A stretch of DNA of 64,000 nucleotides, from the NCBI GenBank assembly GCA_019912545.1, contig JAIOIK010000198.1, forward strand, positions 6,679 through 70,678. Reading direction: 5' to 3'. This DNA is from Ignavibacteria bacterium (GTDB lineage: Bacteria; Bacteroidota; Ignavibacteria; Tepidaquicellales; OLB5). The translations under genes were made by a program, and so were the position numbers. A model generated the notes under the pieces. The model had not been told where the DNA came from. It did not search any database and was given only the letters and a program-made list of their open reading frames with translations. This document shows positions 4,811 to 56,536 of the stretch, piece after piece (position 1 is the first letter of the stretch; every line of letters begins with the position of its first letter).

Positions 4811-6064
4811 TCATTTTATCAAAACCATTTTTTTAGTTTCAGTGAATTCAGAAGTAACCAGTGAATAAAAATATATTCCGCTGGAATATTTTACTGCATT
4901 CCAATCAACAGAATATATCCCGGGCTGTAATTCCATGCTAAGAAGAATATCGATCAATTTCCCTGTAACATCAAAAATTTTTAATTCTGCAAAAGTTCTT
5001 CGCGGAATTTTGAGCTCAATATTTGTATCAGGATTGAACGGATTCGGATAATTTTGAGAAAGACCATATCCGTTTGGAACAGTTGTGCTGATTTGCTGAA
5101 CAGAAACAGGAATATCATCACACATTACCCAAAAAGGTTTTTTTTCGTATGTCGTATTCCAAATTGTATATATGTCAGTCAAGGATTTCCAGATAACCCG
5201 TCCTTGATTTATCATTGGTGCAATTGAATCAATAAATTGTGAAATTTTAGTAACCCGCGATGCATTAAGATCACCAACGCTGAATATCGAAAATGCAGGA
5301 TAGAAGCCTGTATCAGGCAGACCGCCTGAATTCAGCTGGTTCACAATGTTTCTGATGGTTTCTGTATTATAAGTTATATTTGAGGTATCCTCAATTTGAT
5401 TTTCGCAGCCATGACCAAGAACTACAAGATGTTTAGAACTGTCATGGTAATAATAGTTTGCCATGCTTTGCGGCTTCCATGCTCCCAGCGGGTATGGATC
5501 GTTTACATGCAGTGGTGTTCCGCTCCCCCATAATATATCAGGCTTCCAGAAATATGAAGTGTAAACTCTTCCGTAAATCCCGTTTTCAAGATTTTCCCAG
5601 TTGTTGCCGTTTATTACTGTATCATAAAGAAAGCCGCCAACAACTTTAGTAGGCGTAATTCCCAATTGCTGATGCAGATATGCAACATCGGCATAATTGT
5701 ATCCGTTTGCTTCATGTGAATGTGGGTCGCAAATTACTCCTTTATCTTCAACCATCCACCTTATCAAATTTTTGCCGTTCGTATTTGAAACAACACTGCC
5801 GGTATCAAACTGAATTACACCCAGCAAAAATTTCCAGTCAGATTGAAAACTCCATACTGCGCCTTTTGACTGCACAATATCTGCTATCTGAACAAGCAGA
5901 TCCCTTTTAGGTTTATAAAAATTATAAGTTGTCCATGGTGAATTGTCTTCATTATGCGATACTAAGGTCATGTAAACAGGCGGGTTTGACTGAGCAAGGA
6001 TATCGCCGGACAATGAAGAAGTTACAACAAATAGTATAAAAAATGTAATTTTAAAGAATTTCAT
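4811..6064 (-). CDS. T9SS-secreted protein of unknown function
   Basis: Signal peptide MKFFKITFFILFVVTSSLSG from ATG 6062-6064 (track start 6106 adds 14 aa). C-terminal SQNYPNPFNPDTNIELKIPRRTFAELKIFDVTGKLIDILLS..KKMVLIK. No catalytic motif assigned with confidence (DPHSHEANGY is noted only). Confidence 0.7.
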   Translation of the reverse strand: MKFFKITFFILFVVTSSLSGDILAQSNPPVYMTLVSHNEDNSPWTTYNFYKPKRDLLVQIADIVQSKGAVWSFQSDWKFLLGVIQFDTGSVVSNTNGKNLIRWMVEDKGVICDPHSHEANGYNYADVAYLHQQLGITPTKVVGGFLYDTVINGNNWENLENGIYGRVYTSYFWKPDILWGSGTPLHVNDPYPLGAWKPQSMANYYYHDSSKHLVVLGHGCENQIEDTSNITYNTETIRNIVNQLNSGGLPDTGFYPAFSIFSVGDLNASRVTKISQFIDSIAPMINQGRVIWKSLTDIYTIWNTTYEKKPFWVMCDDIPVSVQQISTTVPNGYGLSQNYPNPFNPDTNIELKIPRRTFAELKIFDVTGKLIDILLSMELQPGIYSVDWNAVKYSSGIYFYSLVTSEFTETKKMVLIK

Positions 6065-6134
6065 AATCTGCCTCCTATAGATTTTACTATCTATATGACA
6101 AGACATAATTGAAAAGGTTTAAAATTCTAAGGAT

Positions 6135-6159
6135 AAAAAAAGCGTTCGAAAATGAACGC
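6135..6159 (-). terminator. rho-independent terminator of gene 6185-7436
   Basis: On the minus strand: GCGTTC-attttc-GAACGC followed by TTTTTTT (plus-strand aaaaaaa at 6135-6141). Confidence 0.65.
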
Positions 6160-6184
6160 CTTTGCGTCATGATTACGGGCACTT

Positions 6185-7436
6185 CTACTTGACGAGTATC
6201 ATTTTCTTAGTTTGGCTGAAATCCTGTGTTTTAAGTTGATAGAAATAGACTCCACTTGGATGAGAAGATGCATTCCAGTCAACTTCATATGTACCAGGCT
6301 GTAATGATTGATTTACAAGTTCAGTAATCTCAATGCCCAATGAATTATATATAATCAATTTCGTGTCAAATGAATGCCTCCCACTTACCGAAGGGATTGA
6401 AAATCGAATTCTTGAAACAGGATTAAACGGATTTGGATAATTCTGCATTAAGCTGAACTCATGCGGAATTTCTGTTCCTAAATGATTGATAAAAGTAACA
6501 CCACCATTGGTTGTCTTTAATATCTTGCCGCTCCAAGTTGAAATGTAACCTGTATTTGCAGTTGTAAACCAAACATCTGTAAGGATTTCCGTAAGTGGAG
6601 AGACCTGCGTCTGCCAGTTTGCCCCGCCACTAGTGGTTCTGATTATTGCACCGTTATTACCGCAAGCAATAGCGGTATTTGGATCAGTAAAATAAATGCC
6701 AAAAAGTGATTCCCCGGTTCCGCTCGGGATCAAAGCCCAGTTAGCACCGGCATTAGTTGATTTGAACATTCTGCCTGCATCGCTAACAGCAATTCCGTCA
6801 TTATCGGTGGTAAAATGTATATCCCGGATTGTTTCAAATGAAATATAAGGTGCGCTTAGGCTTTGCCAGTTTGCTCCTCCGTTTGTAGTCTTAAGAATTA
6901 TTGAAGAACCGGATATATAACCGGTACTCTCATTTCTGAAATGCATGTTCGATAAAGCATTTGTCAAGCCGGCTGTTTGATTGAACCAGCTCGTTCCTGC
7001 ATCCGTAGTTTTCATGATCCTTCCGGATGAGCCGCAGACAAATCCGGTAAGCGAATTAACAAACTCCAAGCCCCATAGCTGATCGGTTATTCCGTTTGTA
7101 TTTAATGTTACCCAGTTCATCCCGCCATTTGTAGTCTTAATTATGATCCCGTTATTTCCGCTCATTAAAACTGTATCGGGGTGAATAATCCAAATAGCCA
7201 TGAAGCGCATCGAAGTAAATCCTGAGCTTTGATCGCTCCAGTTCAGCCCCCCCGTTTGTTGTTTTGTGAATATTGAAAGTTGAACTATTGTACAATGGAG
7301 CAGTAGTAAATCCAGTATTTGCATCCCAGAATTTTATTGTCTGTAATGACTGAGCCGGGCTGAATGTGTGAGAAATGAACCAACCTTGTGAATATGTAAT
7401 TATGGGTAGAAGTATTAACAGTATTATTTTCTTCAT
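6185..7436 (-). pseudogene. BNR/Asp-box beta-propeller T9SS cargo gene interrupted by a +1 frameshift in a G7 (plus-strand C7) run
   Basis: ORF 7152-7436 carries the signal peptide MKKIILLILLPIITYSQG and ends ..IHKTTNGG then out of frame (AELERSKL). ORF 6185-7324 continues in the other frame with ..GGLNWSDQSS.. and further Asp-boxes (TTNGGMNW, TTDAGTSW, TTNGGANW, STNAGANW, TTSGGANW) plus a T9SS CTD. The frames meet at C7 7247-7253. Deleting one base restores TTNGGLNW. Confidence 0.75.
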
Positions 7437-7516
7437 TTGGATAGAATTGATTACATAAAAATCATAATGAAAAACTTATGTATCAAGATAAAACCGAGTG
7501 GTTAGAATTTAAGCTA

Positions 7517-7746
7517 AGTACACGACACTATAAATGATGGATAAGAGATCTCAATTAGAATTTAATTCTGAAATTGTCTTAACATTATGAATAAAGCATA
7601 TAATCTTTGTTTTGTGGCGTCAGATATTCATCTGACGCACGTCTGCTTGTTGCAGAAAGGTCAGGTAGAAACCTGAAGTCACAAGGAAAAATACATATTA
7701 AGCATATGGTTTTCTTGTACTTATAGCGCTTTTAGTGTCGTGTACT
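7517..7746. repeat. 230-bp noncoding element bounded by a perfect 14-bp inverted repeat (MITE-like or structured-RNA candidate)
   Basis: AGTACACGACACTA (7517-7530) and its exact reverse complement TAGTGTCGTGTACT (7733-7746). Three adjacent internal hairpins lie at 7617-7638 (9-bp stem), 7642-7656 and 7661-7676, closed by TTGTG/CACAA. Confidence 0.4.
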
Positions 7747-7805
7747 GAGGAAATTAAGGTAGTGTGGTATTTTCAAACGGCCCAATTTGTTATCGCCGCC
7801 TGTAC

Positions 7806-7906
7806 GCCTGCCTGCTGAAGGCAGGGGCAGGCCTGCGAAAGCAGGTCACAAAGTGCTCTTTTAAATCTTGCCTGATCTTAGCAAGATTCCGCATCAAGTG
7901 CGGAAT
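7806..7906. repeat. cluster of short GC-rich hairpins (REP-like)
   Basis: CCTGC-tgaag-GCAGG (7811-7825), palindrome GCAGGCCTGC (7827-7836), CCTGC-gaaa-GCAGG (7832-7845), ATCTTGC..GCAAGAT (7865-7887), ATTCCGC-atcaagt-GCGGAAT (7886-7906). Confidence 0.5.
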
Positions 7907-8141
7907 GACATTAGAGCTCGAATATGATAGTACCCTTCTAATGAATTCAATCTTCTTTTCATAGAATTTTACTTGGTTATGACATTGAATTCTATCAATT
8001 TCACTCTAAATAGGCAATAAACAAATATTTAACAATATATTAATTATTTTAATAAATATAGCATAAAAAATTAACTTAATTAATTTGAATATTGATTTTA
8101 TTAATCATTATTATTATATTAGAGAGAACAAATAAACCAAA

Positions 8142-8510
8142 ATGGCATATAAATTACTTAGTGACTGTCCGGTATGCGGCGATAAACTCAAAGCCGTAAA
8201 ACTCACTTGCTCTTCATGCGGAACATCGTTAGAAAGTGAATTCTCGCTTTCTAAATTTGAACAGCTAACAACTGAACAGCTGCAGTTCATAGATGTATTC
8301 ATGAAGTGCCGGGGCAGCATCAAAGATGTTGAAAAAGAGCTTGGAGTTTCATACCCTACGGTTAGAGCGCGCCTTAACGAAACTGTAAAAGCCTTAGGAT
8401 ATACTGTAGCAGATGAAGAAAAAACCTCCGATGTTCGCAGTATTATTGATAGTATTGAAAGCGGTGAGCTAACACCTGAGGAAGCTTTAAAAAAATTAAA
8501 ATCAAAATAA
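8142..8510 (+). CDS. DUF2089-like zinc-ribbon/HTH protein
   Basis: CPVCGDKLKAVKLTCSSCG zinc ribbon, then LTTEQLQFIDVFMKCRGSIKDVEKELGVSYPTVRARLNE (HTH-like). This matches my recollection of the DUF2089 family. Confidence 0.75.
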   Translation: MAYKLLSDCPVCGDKLKAVKLTCSSCGTSLESEFSLSKFEQLTTEQLQFIDVFMKCRGSIKDVEKELGVSYPTVRARLNETVKALGYTVADEEKTSDVRSIIDSIESGELTPEEALKKLKSK

Positions 8511-8523
8511 AGGAATAACAATC

Positions 8524-8892
8524 ATGAATGAAGAAATAAAACGAATCCTGAAGCTGGTTGAAGAAGGAAAAATAAATTCTGGGCAGGCATCCGATCTAAT
8601 TAATGCGCTTAAGAGCGAAGGCAGCGCAGAAAAAGCGGCAACAGCACAGAAAACCGACAGGCATTTAAAAGTGAACATTACATCAAGCAAAGGGAAAAAT
8701 CTGAACATTAAACTGCCTGTTAAGTTTGTAAAAGGAATCATTAAAGCAACCGGGAAGCTGCCGGTTCACATTAACGGTGACCAGGAAATTAACATGCAGG
8801 TAATTTCTGAAGCTATTGAAAACGATGTAACCGGTAAAATTGTTGAAATGCATACAAACAACGGCGACTACCTTGAAGTTGTAATTGAATAA
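8524..8892 (+). CDS. small SHOCT-like/YvlB-LiaX-N-terminal-like protein, partner of the DUF2089 gene
   Basis: N-terminal EEIKRILKLVEEGKINSGQASDLINALK motif. It starts 13 nt after the DUF2089 gene on the same strand. Confidence 0.55.
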   Translation: MNEEIKRILKLVEEGKINSGQASDLINALKSEGSAEKAATAQKTDRHLKVNITSSKGKNLNIKLPVKFVKGIIKATGKLPVHINGDQEINMQVISEAIENDVTGKIVEMHTNNGDYLEVVIE

Positions 8893-8905
8893 GCTGACCA
8901 CTGCG

Positions 8906-10648
8906 TTATTTGATGAGCAGCATCTTTTTGGTGATCTTAATATTGCCGGATTGCAGTGTATAAAAATATACGCCTCCTGCAAAACCGTTTGCGTCCCATG
9001 CTGCCTCATATATGCCTGGGGTTAAATGCCCAATCAAAAGATCCCCAACCAATTTTCCCGTAACATCAAATATCCGAAGACTTGAACCATGCTTGCCTTC
9101 TACCCATGGTATAGAAAACCTGATCTTAGTAACCGGGTTAAACGGATTTGGAAAGTTCTGGCTTAATGAAAATTCAGATGGAATTTCGTTTCCCACATTG
9201 CTTATTCCTGTTTCATTCAGTACTGTGATATAGCAAGCCTTTACAAGAGTATCTGAACCGAATGCATTTGCTGCCACAAGTGTTACCTGGTATACACCCG
9301 GAGAACTGTATGAAATATTTACCGGGTTCTGCTGATTTGAAGTGGGAATATTCGAGCCGGGAAATTGCCACAACCATGATGTTGGAGCAAATGAAGACTG
9401 ATCTGTAAAATTGATTTGTTCACCCATAAGAATAACATTCTTACTTGCTTTAAAATCTGATACAGGTTTAATTGTATAATTTGTTTTATATGCTTTGATC
9501 TCTGTGCCACTGCCTGCAGTTATAAAGATTCCGTCTTTAGATAGCGATGGGCCGCTATAATAATTATATGGTGTGTTAATAGTCCATTTAACTGTTTGCA
9601 GATTTGGTGAGAACGCAACGTACCTGCCATTACCTGTTTCGGCTGTGCTGATGTATATAGTCGAATCACCGCCGGAGGCAAAGTATGAAAGCGGTGTCCT
9701 GGTTTGGGTTGAGTCCAGGAAATTTCCGTTTGCAGGATCAAGCCTGAATGTTGTACTGTTTGCAAACTGAGATGGATCGTTAATATTGGATGCATACAAA
9801 GTACCGTCCCTGCCTACACCTTTAACTACATATCCCGGGCTGCGGCTCCATTGCTGAACAAAAGCGCTTCCATTATCCCTGAAAGCATACAGCATACCGC
9901 CATCTCTGCAAATATAAATTGTACCATCCGGCCCGATGCAAAGATCATTCTCCTGGTCACCATCACCGGGCAGATCTGCAGAAGTATATTTTGTTGCCCC
10001 TGTATTCATGTCAATTGCGATAAGTTTTTTCGGAGTTACGATAGACCCTGTCCAATGATAATATGTATTTCCGTAAATGCAGTATCCGCCATCGGGTGAA
10101 ACAGGAATAATGTAATTATTCGTCCATTTGGCAATACCAGTGGTTTTGTCAATTCTCCTGCCTTTATCCACAGGGTCGCCGTTACATGCAAACAGCAGCC
10201 CGGTATTTCCGGGGAACATATCAGAGGCTATTGACCATTTGACCGAACCATCGGAAATGCTGAGAGCGTATAATATCCCGGTAAAATAGTCATGAGCGTA
10301 AACTGCATCCTCATTGAATCCAACAGCATACATCCTTGAAGATGCGTTGATCATCTTCTCCCATATTAAAGCGCCGGAGTTTAAATTTCTCAGCTCGATC
10401 TTTCCGGTGTATGGCGAAAGCACTACACGGGATGTTACAAACTTATCAACAAAGGTATACACCGAGTTTCCCCAGGCAGTGGTGTTTGTACTGTTAACAG
10501 TCCAGAAAGCCGAAACTGTATTATTTGGTCCGGTTATTTTGCTAATGCCGTTTCTTTGAACATTGCCGCCTGTTGTAAACCAGTTTTGAGAAAAAATGGT
10601 GGAAGATAATGTGATAAAGAAAAAGAAGTGCAGAAGAAGAGTTTTCAT
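8906..10648 (-). CDS. T9SS-secreted PQQ-like beta-propeller protein with PKD domain
   Basis: Signal peptide MKTLLLHFFFFITLSSTIFSQ. A repetitive propeller-like region follows. PKD-like segment INFTDQSSFAPTSWLWQFPGSNIPTSNQQNPVNISYSSPGVYQVTLVAANAFGSDT. CTD SQNFPNPFNPVTKIRFSIP..KKMLLIK. Confidence 0.8.
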   Translation of the reverse strand: MKTLLLHFFFFITLSSTIFSQNWFTTGGNVQRNGISKITGPNNTVSAFWTVNSTNTTAWGNSVYTFVDKFVTSRVVLSPYTGKIELRNLNSGALIWEKMINASSRMYAVGFNEDAVYAHDYFTGILYALSISDGSVKWSIASDMFPGNTGLLFACNGDPVDKGRRIDKTTGIAKWTNNYIIPVSPDGGYCIYGNTYYHWTGSIVTPKKLIAIDMNTGATKYTSADLPGDGDQENDLCIGPDGTIYICRDGGMLYAFRDNGSAFVQQWSRSPGYVVKGVGRDGTLYASNINDPSQFANSTTFRLDPANGNFLDSTQTRTPLSYFASGGDSTIYISTAETGNGRYVAFSPNLQTVKWTINTPYNYYSGPSLSKDGIFITAGSGTEIKAYKTNYTIKPVSDFKASKNVILMGEQINFTDQSSFAPTSWLWQFPGSNIPTSNQQNPVNISYSSPGVYQVTLVAANAFGSDTLVKACYITVLNETGISNVGNEIPSEFSLSQNFPNPFNPVTKIRFSIPWVEGKHGSSLRIFDVTGKLVGDLLIGHLTPGIYEAAWDANGFAGGVYFYTLQSGNIKITKKMLLIK

Positions 10649-47488: not shown

Positions 47489-49324
47489 TTACTGCTTAAC
47501 TTCTTCCTGTTTATCGGCATCCTGTATAACATCATCGATCTTGAAATCAACTTCGTCTTTCAGTTCTGCAGGTGTTTTAGTTCTTTCTACCACATCAGCA
47601 AGTGTGAATTTCTTCAGTCCGAATTTCTTCACATAATCATCAACTTCTTTCTCACCTTTGTCTTTCAGGTACTCCAGAACAGATAGAACTATCTTTTTGG
47701 ATTCTTTATCGAACTCAATCACCTTTGCATTAAGTTCTTCGCCAGCTTCATAAAGCTCAGCGAAGTTCTTTACCGGCGATACCGATAGCTGTGAAGCCGG
47801 AATGAATCCGTCAACAAGCGTTGGCAGTTCAACAATTATTCCTTTTTCAATAGCTTTCATCATCTTGCATTTGCATTCAGTGCCTGCTTTGTATTCATCT
47901 GCTAGCTTATCCCATGGATTTTCTGTAAGCTGTTTATGGCCAAGTGCAATTCTCTGGTTTTCTACGTCAATTCCAAGAATAGTTACGTCAATTTCCTGCC
48001 CAAGCTGTACAAAATCCTCAATGTTGAAGATCTTCTTAGTCCATGAAAGGTCTGAAATATGAATAAGTCCGTCAACACCTTCTTCAAGCTCAACAAAGAC
48101 GCCGAAGTTGGTAATATTGCAGACTTTTCCCTTATGCTGTGAATTGACCGGGAAACGCTCAAGCAGTGACTGCCATGGATTAGGTGTAAGCTGCTTTATT
48201 CCAAGAGAAAGCTTCTTTTCGTTCTTATCAAGGCTGAGTATTATTGCTTCAATAACCTGTCCCATGGTAACTACCTGGGTTGGATTGGTTATGTGCTGAG
48301 TCCATGACATTTCAGAAATATGAATCAATCCTTCAATTCCTTTTTCAATTTCTATGAATGCGCCGTAATCGGTAATTGATACAACCTTTCCGGAAACCTT
48401 ATCGCCGATCTTGAGCTTTTCTTCAATGTTTTCCCATGGATGCGGCTGCAACTGCTTTAAGCCAAGAGTAACGCGTTTCTTTTCTTTATCATATTCAAGT
48501 ACCTTAACTTCAATTGGAGCATCAAGATTAACGACATCCGAAGGATGATTGATCCTGCCCCATGAAAGGTCTGTAATATGGATAAGCCCGTCAACTCCGC
48601 CAAGATCAACAAATACGCCGAAATCGGTAATAGCTTTAACGGTTGCCTGCAGGATTTGTCCCTGTTCAAGAGTTGTAAGAAGCTTCTCTCTCTGCTCTGA
48701 CATTGATTCTTCAACAAGAACCTTATGCGATACTATAATGTTTTCGTTGGGGTGATTGATCTTCAGGATCTTGAAGTCCATCATTTTATTTACATATACA
48801 TCATAATCACGGATAGGCTTAGTATCGATCTGTGAGCCGGGAAGGAATGCATTAATTCCGCCTAGATCAACAACAAATCCGCCTTTGATCCTTCTTACAC
48901 ATTTACCCTGTATAATTGTATCGTTCTCTTTGGCAGAAGTGATCTTCTCCCAATTCCTTATTATATCCGCGCGCTTGCGTGAAAGCACCAGCTGTCCCTC
49001 GCGGTCTTCAATTTTCTCTACAAATATTTCAAGCTCGTCGCCAATCTTAATGTTATCCGGATCGGGAAATTCATCTATTGATACTCTTCCGTCTGATTTG
49101 AAACCAATATCAATTAAAACATCGTTGCCGCTGATAGCAACAACTTTACCTTTAGCTATCTCATTTTCTTTGATAACATTAAAGGTCTTTTCATAAAGCT
49201 CAATATACTTTTTGAATTCTTCTTCGCTGTAATCTTTGGCTACAAAATCTTTGGTCTTTATGACCGGTGGCTTAACTTCTTCAGTCGTTGCATTAGCATT
49301 TGCTGTCTCGTTTGGTGATGTCAT
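47489..49324 (-). CDS. rpsA: 30S ribosomal protein S1
   Basis: 611 aa with six S1 repeats (recurrent G.V..I..FG.FV.L..G..GL.HIS.. units). Confidence 0.95.
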   Translation of the reverse strand: MTSPNETANANATTEEVKPPVIKTKDFVAKDYSEEEFKKYIELYEKTFNVIKENEIAKGKVVAISGNDVLIDIGFKSDGRVSIDEFPDPDNIKIGDELEIFVEKIEDREGQLVLSRKRADIIRNWEKITSAKENDTIIQGKCVRRIKGGFVVDLGGINAFLPGSQIDTKPIRDYDVYVNKMMDFKILKINHPNENIIVSHKVLVEESMSEQREKLLTTLEQGQILQATVKAITDFGVFVDLGGVDGLIHITDLSWGRINHPSDVVNLDAPIEVKVLEYDKEKKRVTLGLKQLQPHPWENIEEKLKIGDKVSGKVVSITDYGAFIEIEKGIEGLIHISEMSWTQHITNPTQVVTMGQVIEAIILSLDKNEKKLSLGIKQLTPNPWQSLLERFPVNSQHKGKVCNITNFGVFVELEEGVDGLIHISDLSWTKKIFNIEDFVQLGQEIDVTILGIDVENQRIALGHKQLTENPWDKLADEYKAGTECKCKMMKAIEKGIIVELPTLVDGFIPASQLSVSPVKNFAELYEAGEELNAKVIEFDKESKKIVLSVLEYLKDKGEKEVDDYVKKFGLKKFTLADVVERTKTPAELKDEVDFKIDDVIQDADKQEEVKQ

Positions 49325-49598
49325 TCGTTAATAAAACTCCGTTATTAAATATTAAATTATTAGATTCCCCCTGCGCAATAACAAGCCGCCGGGAGCGTTA
49401 GTTAAAAATCCACTCCATTAAGTATAGAAAATTAGTGGAAAAGAATACAAATATGCTAAAAATTTGAGAGAATCACAATGGACTGTTTAGAGAACAACAC
49501 TTGAAATTAAGTCTTTGTTTATTAATATTTTGAATTGAGTAATTTTTTGTACAAAATTTGCATATTTTGGATAAGGTTAGACACTTATTGACTGATAA

Positions 49599-50684
49599 AT
49601 GCCGATAAAAATCAAAGCAAAAGACGTAGAAAGATGGGCTGAAGGTATGGCAAGTCAAAGCGAATTGCCAGACCTTATAAGACAATTGATAGAGGGTACA
49701 GTTGATAAAGACCAAATTGTTGATATTGAATTTCCAGCTTATGATTCTGTACAAACACCTGGACCTGACGGGAGACTCAATTGCAAAAAAGGAAACCGTT
49801 ATATACCTAAAGGACATTCGATATGGGAATTGAGTAATCAGAGCGGAAACTTAGCTAAACAAAATGGCAAAATAGACAAAGACTATAAAGAAAGAACAAA
49901 AAAGCCAATTAATTATGATATCAATAAGGCAACTTTTGTATTTGTAACTGGACATCGTTGCACTTCAAAACATAAATGGAAAGAAAAGATTGTCAAAGAA
50001 CAAAGGAACAACAAAAATAAAAAGAAGATCTGGAAAAGCATTAAACTTTATGATTCAATAGATCTAGAGCACTGGTTAGGATACGTAAGTTATGTTACAT
50101 CTATAAAAATAGCAAAACAATTTTTGCGAATTGTACCACAAGGTCTAGAAACACTTGATACATATGGAGAAATGTGGTGTTATAATAAGAATTTTAGATT
50201 GACACCTGAGCTTATACTGACAAACAGAAAAAATGAACTAGATAAATTAAGGAATTGGTTAAATGATACCCCAAATAAAATTAAGATTCTTACAAACAAT
50301 TGTAAAGAAGCCGTGGTATTCATATGGGCAGTAATAAAAACAATGCCACTGGATGAACAAAATAGTTACTTCAACAAGTGTCTTATAATCAATAATGAAA
50401 TTGATTTAAAAGATATTATACACAGCAATCAACAAAGTATTTTGATTTACACAGGTGAAGATAGTGTCGCAATTGATTATGCTACAAAAAAGCATCATAT
50501 TCTAATACCCAAACTGATAGACAATCAAAAGAATGACAATTTAGGCAATTTCATTAAACTTAAACCTATAGAAGAAAATTCTTTTGAGAAAGCCATGATT
50601 AATTTAGGATTAACTAAAAATAGAATTAAATTACTTTACAAAAAATGTCAAGGAGATTTAAGTAAATTGAAAGAAATTAATTAA
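49599..50684 (+). CDS. hypothetical protein (361 aa); short paralog of the N-terminal third of the downstream 1272-aa protein
   Basis: First ATG after in-frame TGA TAA; AT-rich coding. Collinear motif matches with the next gene: LP.LIR.LI, FPA.D, G.DG.L, YIP.G.S.WE, KATFVFVT, WK.I..YD..DLE.WL, RKNEL....WL, GL(T/S)....G.LS.L. No family recognised. Confidence 0.7.
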   Translation: MPIKIKAKDVERWAEGMASQSELPDLIRQLIEGTVDKDQIVDIEFPAYDSVQTPGPDGRLNCKKGNRYIPKGHSIWELSNQSGNLAKQNGKIDKDYKERTKKPINYDINKATFVFVTGHRCTSKHKWKEKIVKEQRNNKNKKKIWKSIKLYDSIDLEHWLGYVSYVTSIKIAKQFLRIVPQGLETLDTYGEMWCYNKNFRLTPELILTNRKNELDKLRNWLNDTPNKIKILTNNCKEAVVFIWAVIKTMPLDEQNSYFNKCLIINNEIDLKDIIHSNQQSILIYTGEDSVAIDYATKKHHILIPKLIDNQKNDNLGNFIKLKPIEENSFEKAMINLGLTKNRIKLLYKKCQGDLSKLKEIN

Positions 50685-50714
50685 GAAACTTTGAAATTCT
50701 AACATGCAAAAATT

Positions 50715-53700
50715 ATGAAATGGATTAATTCTTCTGATTTAAAATTTTGGGCTATTAAGCAAAATAGAAATTGCCAGCAATACTTGCCTTTACTTATTCG
50801 TTGGTTAATTACTGAAACCGGCAATAACTTTATTACCAAAAAAATTTTCCCCGCCGGGGATGCAATTCATACAGCCGGCTGGGATGGTATATTAGAAACT
50901 AATGCTTCAAGTGAATATATACCTCATGGTATGTCATTCTGGGAATTCGGTTGTGCTGAAAGGATAAAACACCAGGCAGAAAATAACTATACTAAGAGAA
51001 CTAGTGAGCTATTAAGCACTGTAGAAAGAAAGAAAGCTACATTCGTATTTGTAACACCTAGAATATGGAATTACAAACAAAAAGACAAATGGGAAAATGA
51101 AAAGAATTTAGAAAAAAGATGGAAGCAAATAATCGTTTATGATGGCAGAGATTTAGAAGAATGGTTAGAAAATGCACCTGTTACCTCTTCGAAATTTGCG
51201 AGAAAAATTTTAGGTAATTATCCGGATAAAGTACAACCCTTAGAAGACTTTTGGGAAGAATGGTCTATTTGTCAAAAGTATAAGATAAATGAAAACTTAG
51301 TACTTGCAGGTAGAAAAAATGAACTTGAGAATATTTCAAAATGGCTAAGTGGTCCTCCAAGTAGATATATCTTAAAAGCATTGACCAGAGAAGAAGCACT
51401 CGCATTTTTATGTGCTTGTATAATGCATAGTAATGAGAAAGCTAACTATCTATCTAAGAGCTTAATAATAAAAGATAATTACGAATTCACGGAATTAATC
51501 AAAGAGCATACAGGTAAGATATTAATAAACTACTTCGGTAATTTTGACGCTGTTGATCTAGCAATAAATAGAGGAAATCATGTCTTTATTCCGTTAGCCC
51601 CTGATGCAACAAGCATAGAAGCTAATAATAATCTTCAAACTTTAGGTCTAGAAGATTTAGTTACTGAATTAAAAAAAATGGGATTAAGTGATGCTGATGC
51701 AAGACATTTTTCAAAAGATTCTGGTAGAAGTCTATCTGTTTTAAGAAGATTGTTATTTGGTAAAATGAAACAGCCCGAATGGTCCAAAAGGCAAAATGTA
51801 CGAGATATTATTCCATTATTGTTTATACAAAGATGGGATGATTCACAAACAAGGTCTGACAAAAGAAAAATAAAATCTAAATTTGATGACAAGAAAGTAA
51901 TTAAAAAAATTTCAGGCTTAAAATACAAAAACTTTCTTGCAAAAATTACCGAATATAAGAATATAGAAGATCCTCCAATTTATCAAATAGGCTTTAAATG
52001 GCGACTAGTTTCACCTATAGATGCTTGGTATGCAATAGCACCATATGTTACATTTCAACATCTTGATATATTCAAAAAAATCGTTATTGATGTATTAGTT
52101 GAACCTGATCCTGAATTTGAATTAGATGAAAACGAGAGATATAGAGCTGAATTATTAGGAAAATACAGAAAATACTCAGAATGGATTAGGGAAGGTATTT
52201 TGCAAAGTCTTGTTTTAATTGCGATATATGGAGATAGAATATCAAGTTTACAAGGTAATCATCAAGAATGGGTTGACAATATAATTTTAGAGTTAATAGA
52301 TAATATTGATGATAAAAAGTGGTTTTCATTATCTAATATTCTACCTCAAATAGCTGAAGCTTCACCAGTTTCCTTTTTAAATAGTATCGAAAATTCATTG
52401 AGAACCAATGAAAAATCCATTATGATTTTATTTAGGGAGGGAACAGATGCTTTCTTTTCCAGGTGTAATCATGCTGGTTTACTTTGGGCACTAGAATCCC
52501 TTGCATGGAAGTCTGAATATATTATACAAGTTACAAGAATACTAGGGCAATTATGCAAATTAGCACCTGCCAGTAGGTGGGGAAATACTCCAATATCTAC
52601 TTTGCGAGGGATATTTCTTGCTTGGCTGCCTTATACAACAGCAAATTTGAGTGAAAGATTTTCTGCACTCGATGTTTTAATCAAAGAAAATGAAGATGTA
52701 GCTGTTAAATTGCTGTTAAATCTACTACCTAAACCACATGATATAGGTCACCCAACATATAAAGCCAGATGGAGATGGTTCTCTGAATTGAACGAGGCTA
52801 GAGTCACAATAAAAGAAATGCACGATACTTATTCAGGTGTATTGGATAGACTTCTAAAAATAGCTGGTAATAATGGATTATTGCTCGCTAAAATATTACC
52901 TAGTTTCGACGATTTGTCACTGCAGAAGGATAGAGATAAGTTGTTTATTCATTTAAAATCAATTTTAGGTCAAGTAACAAGTGGTAAAAAAGAGTTATGG
53001 AACAAACTTAGAGAGATGATTTCTCGACATAAAACATATAAAGATGCCGCTTGGATTTTACCGGCTATTGAAATAAAGAGACTTGAAGAACTTTATGAAG
53101 AATTTAGATTAGATGATACTATTCAGAATTACAAATGGTTATTTGATGACCATTATCCTAATCTTTTAGATGGGGATAGGAAAAATTATAAAGAATATGA
53201 AAAAAAGATTGAAGATGCCCGAATAGATGCAATTGGGAAAATAATAATGGCAGAAAATGAGGATAAAATAATTGAATTAGCAACCACTGTCAAGTTTCCT
53301 TACTTTTTGGGTTTATCTTTAGCAAAAACCAACTTCGTTAATTCTGAATTAGAAGCAAAAATTATTTCCAAATCAATTGATAATGAAAACTTAATTAACT
53401 TTTCAAGAGGCTATTATGATGGTATGAGAAAAAAACAAGTAAATTGGGTTTTTGAAAGAATGACATATTTCCAAAATAATGAATCGAAACAGGAAATTAT
53501 CGTAAACTTCCTTACCTCTTTAGATTTTGGTAGACCTACTTGGGATTTAGTAGAACAATTTTCAAAAGAAATCCAAAATTTATATTGGGCTAAATGTTAT
53601 GTTTGGTTTCATGAAATTCAGGGTAAAGATAAGAAGTTTGCAATAAGAAATTTGTTGCAAGTAAATAGGTTTATAACTTTAATTGATACCGTTAGTTATC

Positions 53701-54533
53701 ATAGTGAGAATATCCCATCTGAATTGATTGCGGATATTTTAGAAAAAGCCATAACAATTAAATCCAATGATGAAAATAAAAACAGAATTGATCCTCACAA
53801 TGTTGCTGAACTTTTTAAAGTTTTAGATAAAAATGGTTATAATAATACTCCAAATTTAGTAAAATTAGAATGGTTTTATATTGAAATTTTATCTGATGAT
53901 TTTTGGGGTAGACCACCGAAATTATTACATAATGATATGAGTTTAAACGCTAAGTCATTTGTGGATGTTATTAAAATGATTTTTAAACCAAAAGATGACG
54001 AAGAATTACAAAAAGAAGAAACAAAAGGTTTAACCGAAAATCAAATAATCAACAGATATCGTGCGGCCTATGATTTATTAAGTTCATTCAAAACAATCCC
54101 GGGGAAAGATAAAAATGGTAAAATAGATTATCAAACCTTGTTAAGTTGGGTCAAAAATGTCATAAAATTAAGCAAAAAATCAAAAAGAGAATATCATGGC
54201 AAATATTTCATTGGTGAACTTTTTGCAAAAGGAATAGAAAAAGATTCTTTACCACTTGAAGAAATATGTCGGGTAATAGAAGAACTTAACAGCCAAGAAT
54301 TAAAACAAGGTTTCCAAATTGCAAACAGCAATAGAAGGGGTTTAACAACAAGAAATCCTTTTGAAGGTGGTGTGCAAGAGAAAAGCTTATCTGAACATTA
54401 TTATCAGCTTGCTAAAGAAATCGAATTAAAATATCCATTCACCTCAAAAATGTATAAGGATATTGCAAAAACTTATGAACTTGACGCAAAAAGAGAAGAT
54501 GATAGAGCTACAGAAGAAGAGTTAGAATATTAG
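50715..54533 (+). CDS. hypothetical 1272-aa protein: N-terminal module shared with the upstream gene, then a ~925-aa predicted helical-repeat region with an acidic tail
   Basis: Long uninterrupted ORF 30 nt after the previous gene. No signal peptide or TM segment. I found no Walker A, HNH or other catalytic signature by eye. The C-terminal two thirds are rich in amphipathic-helix-like segments (ILQSLVLIAIYGD, ILPQIAEASPVSFLNSIENSL, HAGLLWALESLAWKSEY..) and end ..AKREDDRATEEELEY. Confidence 0.8.
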   Translation: MKWINSSDLKFWAIKQNRNCQQYLPLLIRWLITETGNNFITKKIFPAGDAIHTAGWDGILETNASSEYIPHGMSFWEFGCAERIKHQAENNYTKRTSELLSTVERKKATFVFVTPRIWNYKQKDKWENEKNLEKRWKQIIVYDGRDLEEWLENAPVTSSKFARKILGNYPDKVQPLEDFWEEWSICQKYKINENLVLAGRKNELENISKWLSGPPSRYILKALTREEALAFLCACIMHSNEKANYLSKSLIIKDNYEFTELIKEHTGKILINYFGNFDAVDLAINRGNHVFIPLAPDATSIEANNNLQTLGLEDLVTELKKMGLSDADARHFSKDSGRSLSVLRRLLFGKMKQPEWSKRQNVRDIIPLLFIQRWDDSQTRSDKRKIKSKFDDKKVIKKISGLKYKNFLAKITEYKNIEDPPIYQIGFKWRLVSPIDAWYAIAPYVTFQHLDIFKKIVIDVLVEPDPEFELDENERYRAELLGKYRKYSEWIREGILQSLVLIAIYGDRISSLQGNHQEWVDNIILELIDNIDDKKWFSLSNILPQIAEASPVSFLNSIENSLRTNEKSIMILFREGTDAFFSRCNHAGLLWALESLAWKSEYIIQVTRILGQLCKLAPASRWGNTPISTLRGIFLAWLPYTTANLSERFSALDVLIKENEDVAVKLLLNLLPKPHDIGHPTYKARWRWFSELNEARVTIKEMHDTYSGVLDRLLKIAGNNGLLLAKILPSFDDLSLQKDRDKLFIHLKSILGQVTSGKKELWNKLREMISRHKTYKDAAWILPAIEIKRLEELYEEFRLDDTIQNYKWLFDDHYPNLLDGDRKNYKEYEKKIEDARIDAIGKIIMAENEDKIIELATTVKFPYFLGLSLAKTNFVNSELEAKIISKSIDNENLINFSRGYYDGMRKKQVNWVFERMTYFQNNESKQEIIVNFLTSLDFGRPTWDLVEQFSKEIQNLYWAKCYVWFHEIQGKDKKFAIRNLLQVNRFITLIDTVSYHSENIPSELIADILEKAITIKSNDENKNRIDPHNVAELFKVLDKNGYNNTPNLVKLEWFYIEILSDDFWGRPPKLLHNDMSLNAKSFVDVIKMIFKPKDDEELQKEETKGLTENQIINRYRAAYDLLSSFKTIPGKDKNGKIDYQTLLSWVKNVIKLSKKSKREYHGKYFIGELFAKGIEKDSLPLEEICRVIEELNSQELKQGFQIANSNRRGLTTRNPFEGGVQEKSLSEHYYQLAKEIELKYPFTSKMYKDIAKTYELDAKREDDRATEEELEY

Positions 54534-56536
54534 TTTGTTTCAACCCAAATACCATCCTCTTTCATGAGTTCTATCAGCCTTTCAAGGGCATCGGCATATG
54601 GGATCCCCCTTTCGATAACATCTTTTCCCCTGTAAAGGCTCACCCAATTAGGTCCGCTGCCAACAAAACCGTAATCAGCATCAGCCATTTCACCCGGTCC
54701 GTTAACTATACAGCCCATGATCGCTATTTTAACTCCCTTTAAGTGGTCTGTGCGCTTCTTTATCATAGCAGTTGTGACCTGCAGGTCAAACTGCGTCCTG
54801 CCGCAAGAGGGGCATGAAATATACTCGGTCTTTGATATTCTTGTCCTTGTAGCCTGTAGTACACCAAAGCTAATGCGGTTAACAATTTCCAGGTTGGTTT
54901 CAGGAGATTCTATCCAGATTCCGTCACCCATTCCGTCAATAAATAATGAACCAACCTCAGTTGCACTAAAGAGAGTAAGGTCTTCATCATCAAGTAAATC
55001 ATAATTTCTTTTTAAAATTACGGGAGTCTCAAGTCCGAGTTCCAATAATTCTATTACTATCCTGCGCTCTTCTGCCGCTGCATGTCTATTGTTAGTATTC
55101 AGTATTATGACGCAGAATTTATCAGCGCTGATTGTATCAAGCAGTTCACCCGAAATATCATCAATTGTTAATGAAAGAAAATTTATCCGGAAAGATTTTC
55201 TTTCTGCATTTAAGTATTCTTCCGGAGTAAACAGCGGGAATGATTCTGACTTTTCTTTCAAGTCTTTCCAGTAAGCGTAATCATATATGATTTTCAGTGT
55301 TCCAGGCAGTTTGTATGGAATGGTATTCTTTCCAAGGTAAATAAAATCTGCTGCCATATCGCCAATGTTCCATTTATCAAGCTTAGGGTCGTAGCCATAT
55401 GAAATTCCGCTTAATGCTTCGGGTTTTTGAATTGCATTCACATCCGGAGAAAGTATAACTACGGGCACATGATGATTGCCTATTTTATCGGTCTCATAAG
55501 TTTTTCTGCGCAGGTAACTGAATGGATCATAAGGAATTTCGGATTGCGGATTTTCGATCTCTGATTGAACAGCTGCAACCGGATTATTATAATCAGAAAT
55601 CCGATTCCCGATATCCGCAATTTGTTTATGTCCGTTAATATCATTGTACTTTGCAACGATCCTTTTACACACGGGAATTTCGAACTCAGGGTCTTCGGTA
55701 AGTGATACCCTTATTGTATCGCCAAGCCCATCTTCAAGAAGAGTGCCAATACCAACTGCTGATTTTATCCTTCCGTCTTCGCCGTCACCGGCTTCGGTAA
55801 CGCCAAGGTGCAGCGGGTAATTCATGCCTTCTTCTTCCATCTTGCTGACAAGCAGTCTATACGCCTGTACCATAACCTGAGTATTGCTTGCCTTCATGGA
55901 TAGTATTAACTCGTGGTAATTCATGTCGCGGCAAATCCGAACAAACTCCAGCGCTGATTCAACCATGCCAAGCGGAGTATCACCAAAGCGGTTCATGATC
56001 CTGTCGGATAGTGATCCGTGGTTTGTGCCAATCCTCATAGCCGTGCCGTACTCTTTGCAGACCTTCACAAGCGGCGCAAATTCTTCGTAAATCCTATCAA
56101 GCTCTTCATTATACATCTCATCGGTAAAGCTGAATACTTTGAATCTCTTCTTATCTGCATAATTGCCCGGGTTAACCCGCACTTTTTCTACAATACGGGC
56201 AGCCAGTTCAGCAGCATCCGGTTTGAAGTGAATATCTGCAACAATAGGCGTATTATAGCCGCGTGCTCTAAGCTCCTGTTTAATATTCTCAAGATTCTTC
56301 GCCTCTTTCATAGCAGGTGCAGTAATTCTTACCAGCTCGCTTCCGGCTTCGATCATACGGATTGATTGTTCAACCGTGCCTTTTGTATCCATTGTATCGG
56401 TCGTAGTCATTGATTGCACACGGATGGGATTATCTCCCCCGATGCCAACATTGCCAACCATAACAACACGGGTCTTATATCTTGAGTATTTTGCTAAGGA
56501 GTTACAATATTTTTTGGTGATTGTTTGTGTTTCCAA
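54530..56536 (-). CDS. ispG: 4-hydroxy-3-methylbut-2-en-1-yl diphosphate synthase (long form with insert domain)
   Basis: ..VGNVGIGGDNPIRVQSMT.., ..VRVNPGN.., C-terminal [4Fe-4S] cysteines (ISCPSCGRT .. MGCIVNGPGE). TTG start as in the track. Confidence 0.95.
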   Translation of the reverse strand: METQTITKKYCNSLAKYSRYKTRVVMVGNVGIGGDNPIRVQSMTTTDTMDTKGTVEQSIRMIEAGSELVRITAPAMKEAKNLENIKQELRARGYNTPIVADIHFKPDAAELAARIVEKVRVNPGNYADKKRFKVFSFTDEMYNEELDRIYEEFAPLVKVCKEYGTAMRIGTNHGSLSDRIMNRFGDTPLGMVESALEFVRICRDMNYHELILSMKASNTQVMVQAYRLLVSKMEEEGMNYPLHLGVTEAGDGEDGRIKSAVGIGTLLEDGLGDTIRVSLTEDPEFEIPVCKRIVAKYNDINGHKQIADIGNRISDYNNPVAAVQSEIENPQSEIPYDPFSYLRRKTYETDKIGNHHVPVVILSPDVNAIQKPEALSGISYGYDPKLDKWNIGDMAADFIYLGKNTIPYKLPGTLKIIYDYAYWKDLKEKSESFPLFTPEEYLNAERKSFRINFLSLTIDDISGELLDTISADKFCVIILNTNNRHAAAEERRIVIELLELGLETPVILKRNYDLLDDEDLTLFSATEVGSLFIDGMGDGIWIESPETNLEIVNRISFGVLQATRTRISKTEYISCPSCGRTQFDLQVTTAMIKKRTDHLKGVKIAIMGCIVNGPGEMADADYGFVGSGPNWVSLYRGKDVIERGIPYADALERLIELMKEDGIWVETN

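Follow-up and report, generated by a model that had tools for sequence, protein, structure and literature searches.

A paired-gene locus in an Ignavibacteria bacterium and its possible link to Avs8-like immune sensors that lack a P-loop

Two adjacent genes, here termed P1 and P2, lie between rpsA and ispG in a 64,000-nucleotide stretch (the window) of contig JAIOIK010000198.1 from an Ignavibacteria bacterium. P2 belongs to a large and essentially unannotated protein family that combines a predicted restriction-endonuclease-like N-domain, a NOD-like domain and a long C-terminal region, and P1 is a short paralogue of the first two of these domains. The reading favoured here, to which an even chance is given, is that P2 is a distant Avs8-like immune sensor without a P-loop, which in this lineage has been split into a sensor (P2) and a paralogue that retains the effector (P1). 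Antiviral STAND/NLR-like sensors are already known as a kind; what appears to be new, judging from sequence comparisons and structure models, is the unannotated and very widespread Avs8-like architecture that lacks a P-loop, together with its rare split into two co-evolving chains. The features of the locus are as follows.

49325-49598: intergenic stretch between rpsA and P1, presumed from the open reading frame (ORF) map to hold the promoter region of a P1-P2 operon
49599-50684, plus strand: P1 gene, 361 aa, short paralogue with N-domain and NOD-like domain only; its end coincides with the last helix of the lid bundle
49599-50192, plus strand: P1 N-domain, aa 1-198, predicted restriction-endonuclease-like; aligned to P2 1-188, structure by homology to the P2 model
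P1 motif codons, plus strand: D57 at 49767-49769, E77 at 49827-49829, K91 at 49869-49871, D95 at 49881-49883, R99 at 49893-49895
50193-50681, plus strand: P1 NOD-like (AAA+/STAND-like) domain and helical lid; R210 and E237 kept, no Walker A
50685-50714: P1-P2 spacer, 30 nt from the P1 stop TAA to the P2 start
50715-54533, plus strand: P2 gene, 1272 aa, family phrog_18693
50715-51278, plus strand: P2 N-domain, aa 1-188
P2 motif codons, plus strand: D57 at 50883-50885, E77 at 50943-50945, Q87 at 50973-50975, N91 at 50985-50987, R95 at 50997-50999
51279-51764, plus strand: P2 NOD-like domain, aa 189-350, predicted α/β core with three-helix lid; R200 and E227 invariant
51765-54530, plus strand: P2 C-terminal region, aa 351-1272

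The similarity between P1 and P2 is well above chance. BLASTP yields a single collinear alignment of P1 5-315 with P2 4-307 (33% identity, 51% positives, E=1e-38), and the 1258-position profile of phrog_18693 is matched end to end by P2 (E=4e-154) and at positions 4-343 by P1 (E=8e-24). Remnants of the duplication can still be recognized at the DNA level (49800-49831 with 50916-50947, and 49923-49948 with 51030-51055). A reading of the nucleotide sequence alone (the original prediction) had singled out the interval 49599-51755, which comprises all of P1 and the first 347 codons of P2, and had proposed a collinear N-terminal region of ~345 aa common to both proteins. Alignment and profile bear this out, the coordinates and peptide strings quoted for it were all found as given, and the view of the upstream gene as a duplicated, C-terminally truncated copy is supported; the shared region is, however, not the single module then envisaged and falls into two domains (1-188 and 189-350).

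Homologues of P2 number more than 717 in a set of 5.8 billion sequences; among the 120 matches listed, nearly all are 1240-1290 aa in length and almost none carries a precomputed Pfam domain. A profile search with the N-domain returned 3619 clusters at 50% identity, including 2088 at E<=1e-30, and because the best 150 of the 3619 are full-length proteins or contig-end fragments, the N-domain appears to be essentially confined to the ~1255-aa architecture. Hosts include Ignavibacteria, many Bacteroidota, Cloacimonadota, Desulfobacterota, Armatimonadota, Alpha-, Beta- and Gammaproteobacteria, and the Firmicutes Moorella, Brevibacillus and Ureibacillus, and a copy is present in 25 plasmid records, 12 of them of conjugative plasmids. 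Proteobacterial copies bear an N-terminal extension of ~100 aa that is 48-53% identical to stand-alone HigA antitoxins (L049 152-~450; L050 5713-~6000), which accounts for the names 'HTH regulator' and 'HigA antitoxin' under which they are filed (HTH, helix-turn-helix). This module may serve autoregulation or may have been captured from a toxin-antitoxin locus; some other members carry ArsR-type or XRE-type HTH extensions. All remaining public names are 'hypothetical protein', as are those of the exact P1 and P2 proteins (from an Ignavibacteria metagenome-assembled genome), phrog_18693 carries no annotation, and a literature search on five RefSeq accessions and the PHROG id found no papers that mention them. 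Since the phage database holds only one weak record with a relative, the family is not a typical phage gene and is mainly cellular or plasmid-borne. A 724-aa partial member (P0265, in the cluster of P0044) is recorded under a Nanoarchaeota metagenome-assembled genome, while the other members of its 90% cluster come from bacterial or unassigned metagenomes; its archaeal placement is likely a binning artefact, or possibly a transfer to archaea.

Conservation of the N-domain was counted, in P2 numbering, over 124 and then 263 homologous N-domains, and the figures given here are for the larger set. D57, G58, E77 and W126 are present in all 263, G55 and W76 in 261, R95 in 261 and K87 in 260; D91 is found in 244 and replaced by Glu in 12 more (D/E in 256). 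The original prediction had described D49, D57 and E77 as an invariant acidic triad. These residues do have identical numbers in P1 and P2, and the last two are kept throughout, but position 49 is E in 125 sequences, D in 120 and K, S, N, R or A in 18. With an acidic residue there in 93% and D49 itself not invariant, the triad becomes a conserved pair plus a mostly acidic position. D57 lies within a G-W-D-G motif directly ahead of the strand at 58-62, and E77, in the sequence W-E-x-G, ends the strand at 72-78. The observation that no Lys stands at the canonical +2 position is confirmed (the residue two beyond E77 is G79, G or S in the family); what had been overlooked is the K-A-x-x-D-Y-x-K-R helix that follows strand 3 and carries K87, D91 and R95.

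An AlphaFold2 model of P2 1-350, computed from a 73-sequence alignment, consists of two domains (predicted local distance difference test, pLDDT, 95.3; predicted template modelling score, pTM, 0.91), and domain 1 (about 1-170) modelled by itself gave a pLDDT of 92.2. In both models DSSP assigns domain 1 a helix at 17-35, strands at 40-44, 58-62 and 72-78, a helix at 84-97, a strand at 108-113, a helix at 120-132 and a strand at 138-142, so that the predicted topology, alpha-beta-beta-beta-alpha-beta, is that of the restriction-endonuclease fold. Residue 57 would face 77 if the 58-62/72-78 hairpin has the register 62:72, and helical periodicity would place K87, A88, D91, Y92 and R95 on one face of their helix. 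The best Foldseek match of domain 1 in the PDB is MspJI (4f0p_C, E=0.017, probability 0.93, query-normalized TM-score, TMq, 0.44), and others are Mus81-Eme1, BstEII, EcoT38I (probability 0.72), Cap4, Can2 (0.57), Card1, the BspD6I small subunit and an XisH-like protein. The top BFVD match is a phage 'restriction endonuclease' (E=0.011, probability 0.99, TMq 0.43), ahead of T7-endonuclease-I-like, RPB5, Vsr and Cas4-like proteins, and the fold class suggested by the model is consistent between the two libraries. Of the restriction-endonuclease-like core first proposed, the topology thus stands, and the top structural matches are indeed PD-(D/E)xK enzymes; the matches themselves are weak, none at E<=0.001, and sequence profiles yield no nuclease family.

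Sequence-level searches were otherwise unproductive. A Pfam scan of 34 N-domains at E<=10 revealed no recurrent family, and when PDB sequences were searched with profiles of the whole family, its N-domain or its C-terminal region, all matches were at chance level (ribosomal protein L22, de novo TIM barrels). P1 and P2 searched against Pfam, NCBIfam and PADLOC returned nothing apart from a GajB match of P1 (E=0.008), rejected as low-complexity noise because it falls on an 8-residue Lys-rich insertion that the P1 N-domain has relative to that of P2.

It might be argued from these results that the N-domain is no nuclease at all, and that it uses a restriction-endonuclease-like fold to bind DNA, nucleotide or protein while any effector activity resides elsewhere. 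The lack of a Lys at +2 after E77 and of a match to any nuclease hidden Markov model (HMM), the presence of the non-catalytic RPB5 among the weak Foldseek matches, and a C-terminal region of 920 aa that is uncharacterised would all suit such a view. Variants with a relocated Lys are, however, known in the PD-(D/E)xK superfamily, and the missing +2 Lys therefore counts against the canonical motif and not against the fold. Asp and Glu are invariant at both canonical metal-ligand positions, and the near-invariance of Lys, Asp and Arg on one helix face, among 263 sequences that are ~30% identical overall, is as expected of a catalytic site; Avs8A, the closest relative that has been characterised, moreover uses an N-terminal Mrr-type domain as a DNase. 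A purely binding N-domain is therefore considered unlikely, and a catalytic one is favoured with some confidence.

Domain 2 of the model (P2 ~190-350) resembles, in Foldseek, RFC subunits, ClpB, RuvB, Apaf-1 and CED-4 over 190-240 columns, with probabilities up to 0.99 and weak E values of about 0.02. It opens with a G-R motif, of the sort often found ahead of AAA+/STAND modules, in which R200 is invariant. The loop at the position of the P-loop, which follows the strand at 217-221 and is only ~3 residues long, reads Q-A-x-S-R-E-E (E227 in 99%). No Walker A motif (G/AxxxxGK[ST]) occupies the corresponding site in any P1 or in any of 226 full-length members, and NACHT, NB-ARC, AAA_16 and similar models give no Pfam or NCBIfam match to P1 or P2 at E<=1. 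The best explanation of the modelled fold is an AAA+/STAND-like module that has lost its P-loop. Further along, at about 460-475 of the family (P2 numbering), the sequence R-x-M-A-S-x-Y-G-K-x-R-x-Y-S is conserved. Candidates for a cryptic Walker A elsewhere proved sporadic and non-homologous; the string 'AAxIYGKS' at ~469 (464-476) of P0100, P0116, P0118, P0172 and P0216 lies inside the M-A-S-x-Y-G-K segment and is probably no P-loop, since no hydrophobic strand precedes it.

The link to Avs8 came from a PADLOC scan of diverse full-length members, in which the model PD-Lambda-4_A was weakly matched by 3 of 7 and then by 10 of 39 (13 of 46 in all; best E=4.2e-6), while every other PADLOC model was matched by at most one member of the 46. 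The matches are roughly collinear, with protein residues 528-751 aligned to positions 557-688 of the 1283-position profile. Avs8A, which is PD-lambda-4A, combines an N-terminal Mrr-type nuclease and a repeat sensor in one STAND protein, and it degrades DNA after binding HK97-fold major capsid proteins (10.1101/2025.07.02.662641). Its operon partner Avs8B is reportedly dispensable for defence, of unknown nature and without known homology (10.1101/2025.07.02.662641; PMC13581612), and the Walker motifs of KpAvs8 are degenerate (Extended Data Fig. 11 legend, PMC13581612). Like the P2 family (~1255-1280 aa), Avs8A (E. coli ECOR07, WP_000963924.1) is a single large polypeptide of the same size, as judged by its 1283-position profile, and the two share a defence context and, as predicted for the family, the order of an N-terminal nuclease of restriction-endonuclease fold (Mrr-type in Avs8), a STAND-type module and a long C-terminal sensor. 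Avs8 is likewise described as a two-gene operon, and the degenerate Walker motifs of KpAvs8 are a further point of likeness to P1-P2. The family differs from Avs8 in that no Walker A is present at all and the N-domain is not recognized by Mrr or any other nuclease HMM; P1 differs from Avs8B in being a truncated paralogue of its partner.

P1-type proteins are rare. Five were found in the set of 5.8 billion sequences and one more from genomic context, so that six loci are at hand (the window, L001, the P0123/P0002 contig, L005, L043 and L044). P1 stands directly upstream of P2 in all six, with a gap of 22-44 nt in the five for which coordinates are available. No P1-like partner occurs among 208 flanking ORFs of 19 main-family loci, and no P1-type gene lies beside P0005, an unpaired protein that is one of the nearest relatives of the window P2 (46% identity). 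The P1s are 359-369 aa long, with intact frames and ends at the domain boundary, and those of the other loci are 39-59% identical to the window P1; all six share 77 invariant columns as well as P1-specific invariant residues. A neighbor-joining tree of the shared region recovers P1s and paired P2s as two separate clades, each in 200/200 bootstraps, with congruent internal branching. A sister relationship of P1 to the paired P2s was considered and is not resolved by this method (6/200 bootstraps, with P1 on a long branch). The simplest history suggested by the sequences is one duplication at the base of the clade, shortening of P1 to exactly where the lid bundle ends, and subsequent co-diversification.

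The rarity of P1 (six loci; five proteins in 5.8 billion), together with the larger number of substitutions at family-conserved columns than in typical members, might suggest a functionless, decaying remnant of a tandem duplication. Six orthologues of near-equal length with intact frames, an end at the domain boundary, 77 invariant columns and a tree that mirrors that of the partner P2s leave that proposal effectively refuted.

It is the residues of the motif helix that best reveal how the two chains have diverged. Among the 263 N-domains, both exceptions at R95 and two of the three at K87 are paired P2s: the window P2 and P0002 have K87Q and D91N, P0003 has R95D, P0004 has R95N and D91G, and the partial P2 of L005 has D91N. 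K87 or R95 has thus been lost in 4/4 paired P2s, in at least three independent events, versus 1/254 unpaired members. The same contrast is seen when mismatches are counted at columns with >=95% conservation in a set of 65 unpaired members: over 25 columns of the N-domain, the paired P2s have 2, 2, 4 and 6 mismatches and unpaired members a mean of 0.31 (maximum 2), and over 46 columns of the C-terminal region the paired P2s have 0, 0, 0 and 2 (the window P2 none) and unpaired members a mean of 0.97. This pattern implies that in the paired P2s the effector-motif helix, and not the presumed sensor, is specifically where constraint has been relaxed, the motif being maintained in P1. D57, E77, K87 (K91 in P1) and R95 (R99 in P1) are present in all six P1s and D91 in five; the P1s depart from the family at aromatic or structural positions (W56P, A88I/V, P115G, W160K/R, W180G). 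W160, conserved in at least 95% of unpaired members, is K, T or R in all P1s and paired P2s (K160 of the window P2 is encoded at 51192-51194), and W56 is P, L or A in all P1s and in the paired P2s of L043, L044 and L005. Either both changes date from the duplication as a shared derived character, or they mark a contact at which P1 and P2 have co-adapted.

Four residues of P1 form a set of their own: C121, H125, C194 and C350 (codons 49959-49961, 49971-49973, 50178-50180 and 50646-50648) are invariant in the six P1s, and the aligned residues of the P2 family are W118, D124, S184 and D335. From the sequences they could be a P1-specific zinc site, or a disulfide staple that joins the N-domain, the linker and the C-terminal lid.

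Since the full charged motif survives in P1, while the paired P2 has an eroding N-domain and an intact C-terminal region, the pair would most likely act as a hetero-oligomer in which P2 is sensor and scaffold and P1 supplies competent effector domains. The N-domain would be a metal-dependent nuclease. Binding of a phage component by the C-terminal region of P2 would drive oligomerisation through the NOD-like module, with no ATP hydrolysis, and the gathering of N-domains would switch on DNA cleavage. That P1 is the active partner is held tentatively, at somewhat below even chance. The more general idea, that NLR/Avs-like receptors without nucleotide binding are widespread and that one lineage was split into a sensor with a degenerating effector and an executor that keeps the nuclease, is a speculative possibility and rather doubtful as a whole.

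The opposite role for P1 must also be considered. As a negative regulator (a decoy, cap or antitoxin-like protein, as the original prediction had ventured), P1 would occupy the oligomerisation or effector surface and hold P2 silent until infection. P1 has the same interaction-capable modules as P2 and no sensor, it evolves faster (59% identity between the window and L001, versus 77% for the homologous region of P2), the HigA-antitoxin-like HTH of some members suggests a need for tight control, and the second gene of Avs8 is dispensable for defence. A pure inhibitor would need none of D57, E77, K87, D91 and R95, yet these are what the P1s retain (D91 in five of the six); the decay is in the N-domain of P2, with K87, D91 or R95 being lost from paired P2s, which is the opposite of what a decoy predicts; and more than 3600 solo clusters manage without a partner. 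Nor does P1, a 361-aa paralogue with no HTH, resemble the small, labile, unrelated and usually DNA-binding antitoxin of type II toxin-antitoxin systems. An inhibitory P1 is accordingly thought improbable, as is this regulatory scheme as a whole, and the reverse assignment, with P1 as keeper of the effector motif, fits the residues better.

Several points weigh against the account of P2 as an Avs8-like sensor served by P1. The window P2 itself has no PD-Lambda-4_A match, which is why the family is treated as an Avs8-like relative, a distant one as judged by sequence, and is not placed as an Avs8 member; in the other members the similarity spans only ~100-130 residues. The P2 C-terminal ~920 aa match nothing in Pfam or the PDB, a Pfam scan of 25 C-terminal regions at E<=10 gave no recurrent family, and a sensor role for this region is presumed by analogy. 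For the N-domain, structural similarity is weak even in the best cases (E 0.011-0.017, TM 0.43-0.44), searches of Pfam, NCBIfam and PDB sequence profiles link it to no nuclease family, and the expected (D/E)-x-K is absent from core strand 3, the conserved Lys being K87 on the following helix. The Fisher test on the loss of K87 or R95 (p=3e-8) takes no account of phylogeny, and D57 and E77 are still present in the paired P2s, so that their N-domain may remain active. The tally of defence genes beside family members, to which the discussion now turns, is a raw one without background control.

Known defence systems recur next to otherwise unrelated loci of the P2 family. These include a type I restriction-modification system with HipA (L006), SIR2-HerA with a type III-like restriction subunit (L010), a DISARM-like set of Helicase_C, MZB and PLDc_2 at 1-5931 of L047, and RT-SLATT with a Shedu fragment on a Rhizobium plasmid (L050). 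Among ORFs within 6 kb of 19 further GTDB loci were EcoRV with a D12 methylase, type I, II and III methylases, AbiL, AbiE and a type III-A retron, as well as CBASS (cyclase, 4TM effector and CapP), Mokosh MkoC and several PADLOC candidate systems. Recurrent neighbours of this kind are the usual signature of defence genes. A family engaged in plasmid maintenance or addiction, repair or transcription regulation would fit the plasmid copies annotated 'HTH transcriptional regulator' or 'HigA family antitoxin' amid transposases, the one copy carried by an element that also encodes a serine recombinase and RecA (L008), and the loci without defence neighbours (L009, L044 and L045). Those annotations reflect nothing more than the N-terminal HTH extension of a minority, and on the other side stand the repeated company of defence systems and the specific remote similarity to Avs8A; a non-immune role is thus quite improbable, and a role in immunity or conflict is regarded as probable.

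The L001 locus, from a related genome, occupies the same rpsA/ispG site as the window pair and has an MjaI restriction-modification system beyond ispG: an MjaI-type restriction enzyme and an N6/N4 methylase lie at 5638-9790, where the window has a rhomboid and a nucleotidyl-transferase gene. In these Ignavibacteria the neighbourhood of ispG may act as a hotspot of variable defence content. In L047, P0177, the only unpaired member with K87N, lies directly downstream of the DISARM-like set. A nearby gene (L047 12597-13727) has a weak match to DUF4062, which reportedly was renamed NIR NADase in a 2026 preprint. A 194-aa gene upstream of P0177 was considered as a P1-like partner and discarded, being unrelated to the N-domain.

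The logic of effector, NOD and sensor is shared with Avs3 and Avs4, which have PD-(D/E)xK effectors that are Cap4- or Mrr-like and in which ligand-induced oligomerisation is presumed to join the nuclease domains. P2 is unlike them in matching no PADLOC Avs model, in having no P-loop and in showing no TPR signature in its C-terminal region. In the catalytic domain of MspJI and Mrr-type enzymes, as in the N-domain, strand 2 begins with an Asp and strand 3 carries an acidic or polar residue; MspJI, however, has D...QxK with the Lys on strand 3, while that of the N-domain is ten residues later on a helix, and the match at E=0.017 is not significant alone. Chains of Mus81-Eme1 also recur among the fold matches, at low probability (0.16-0.38), and the K-x3-D of the ERCC4 signature GDXnERKX3D recalls the spacing K87-x3-D91. 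By analogy, the residue pattern of P1 and P2 may be compared with Mus81-Eme1 and XPF-ERCC1, in which a competent and a degenerate paralogous nuclease domain are paired. Unlike the ERCC4 nucleases, the family has E77 and K87 10 residues apart and not 2, and no helix-hairpin-helix domain. The split into P1 and P2 might further be likened to sensor/executor (sensor/helper) pairs of NLRs.

If the family does represent an Avs8-like, ATP-independent sensor, then the definition of bacterial STAND/NLR-type immunity would be widened, a large family that PADLOC, Pfam and NCBIfam currently miss would be added to defence catalogues, and a test case for nucleotide-independent oligomerisation would be at hand. 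The retention of the effector motif in the truncated copy, with its piecemeal loss from the full-length one, is sequence evidence for a division of labour between sensor and executor. Should the split be real, it would be a bacterial counterpart of paired NLRs and a natural experiment on a receptor module supplied in trans.

In the window, P1 and P2 are flanked by rpsA (47489-49324, minus strand) and ispG (54530-56536, minus strand), and further outward by housekeeping genes for a SuhB-like phosphatase, an SPFH protein, rhomboid, nucleotidyl-transferase, HAD, GNAT, IspH and urocanase. The 5.2-kb P1-P2 insert has a GC content of 0.305, versus 0.391 in the remaining window. Given their common strand and the 30-nt gap, P1 and P2 probably form one operon; the two genes are just as closely spaced in L001, L043 and L044. 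A scan for sigma-70-type promoters found sites no commoner than in shuffled sequence, and for that reason no promoter is claimed upstream of P1. The 64-kb window (1-64000) contains no tRNA gene and no Rfam family at the gathering threshold, and no repeats flank the insert. P2 ends with the stop codon TAG (54531-54533), in a 4-nt overlap with the 3' end of the convergently transcribed ispG, and on its right side the low-GC insert therefore has no space for a terminator or attachment site. A terminator scan of the insert likewise remained at background level; its sole terminator-like hairpin, at 50848-50860 on the minus strand (TCCCCGGCGGGGA followed by a T-run), spans the FPAGD codons within the coding sequence of P2 and is probably due to chance, as the hairpin count is under the shuffle expectation.

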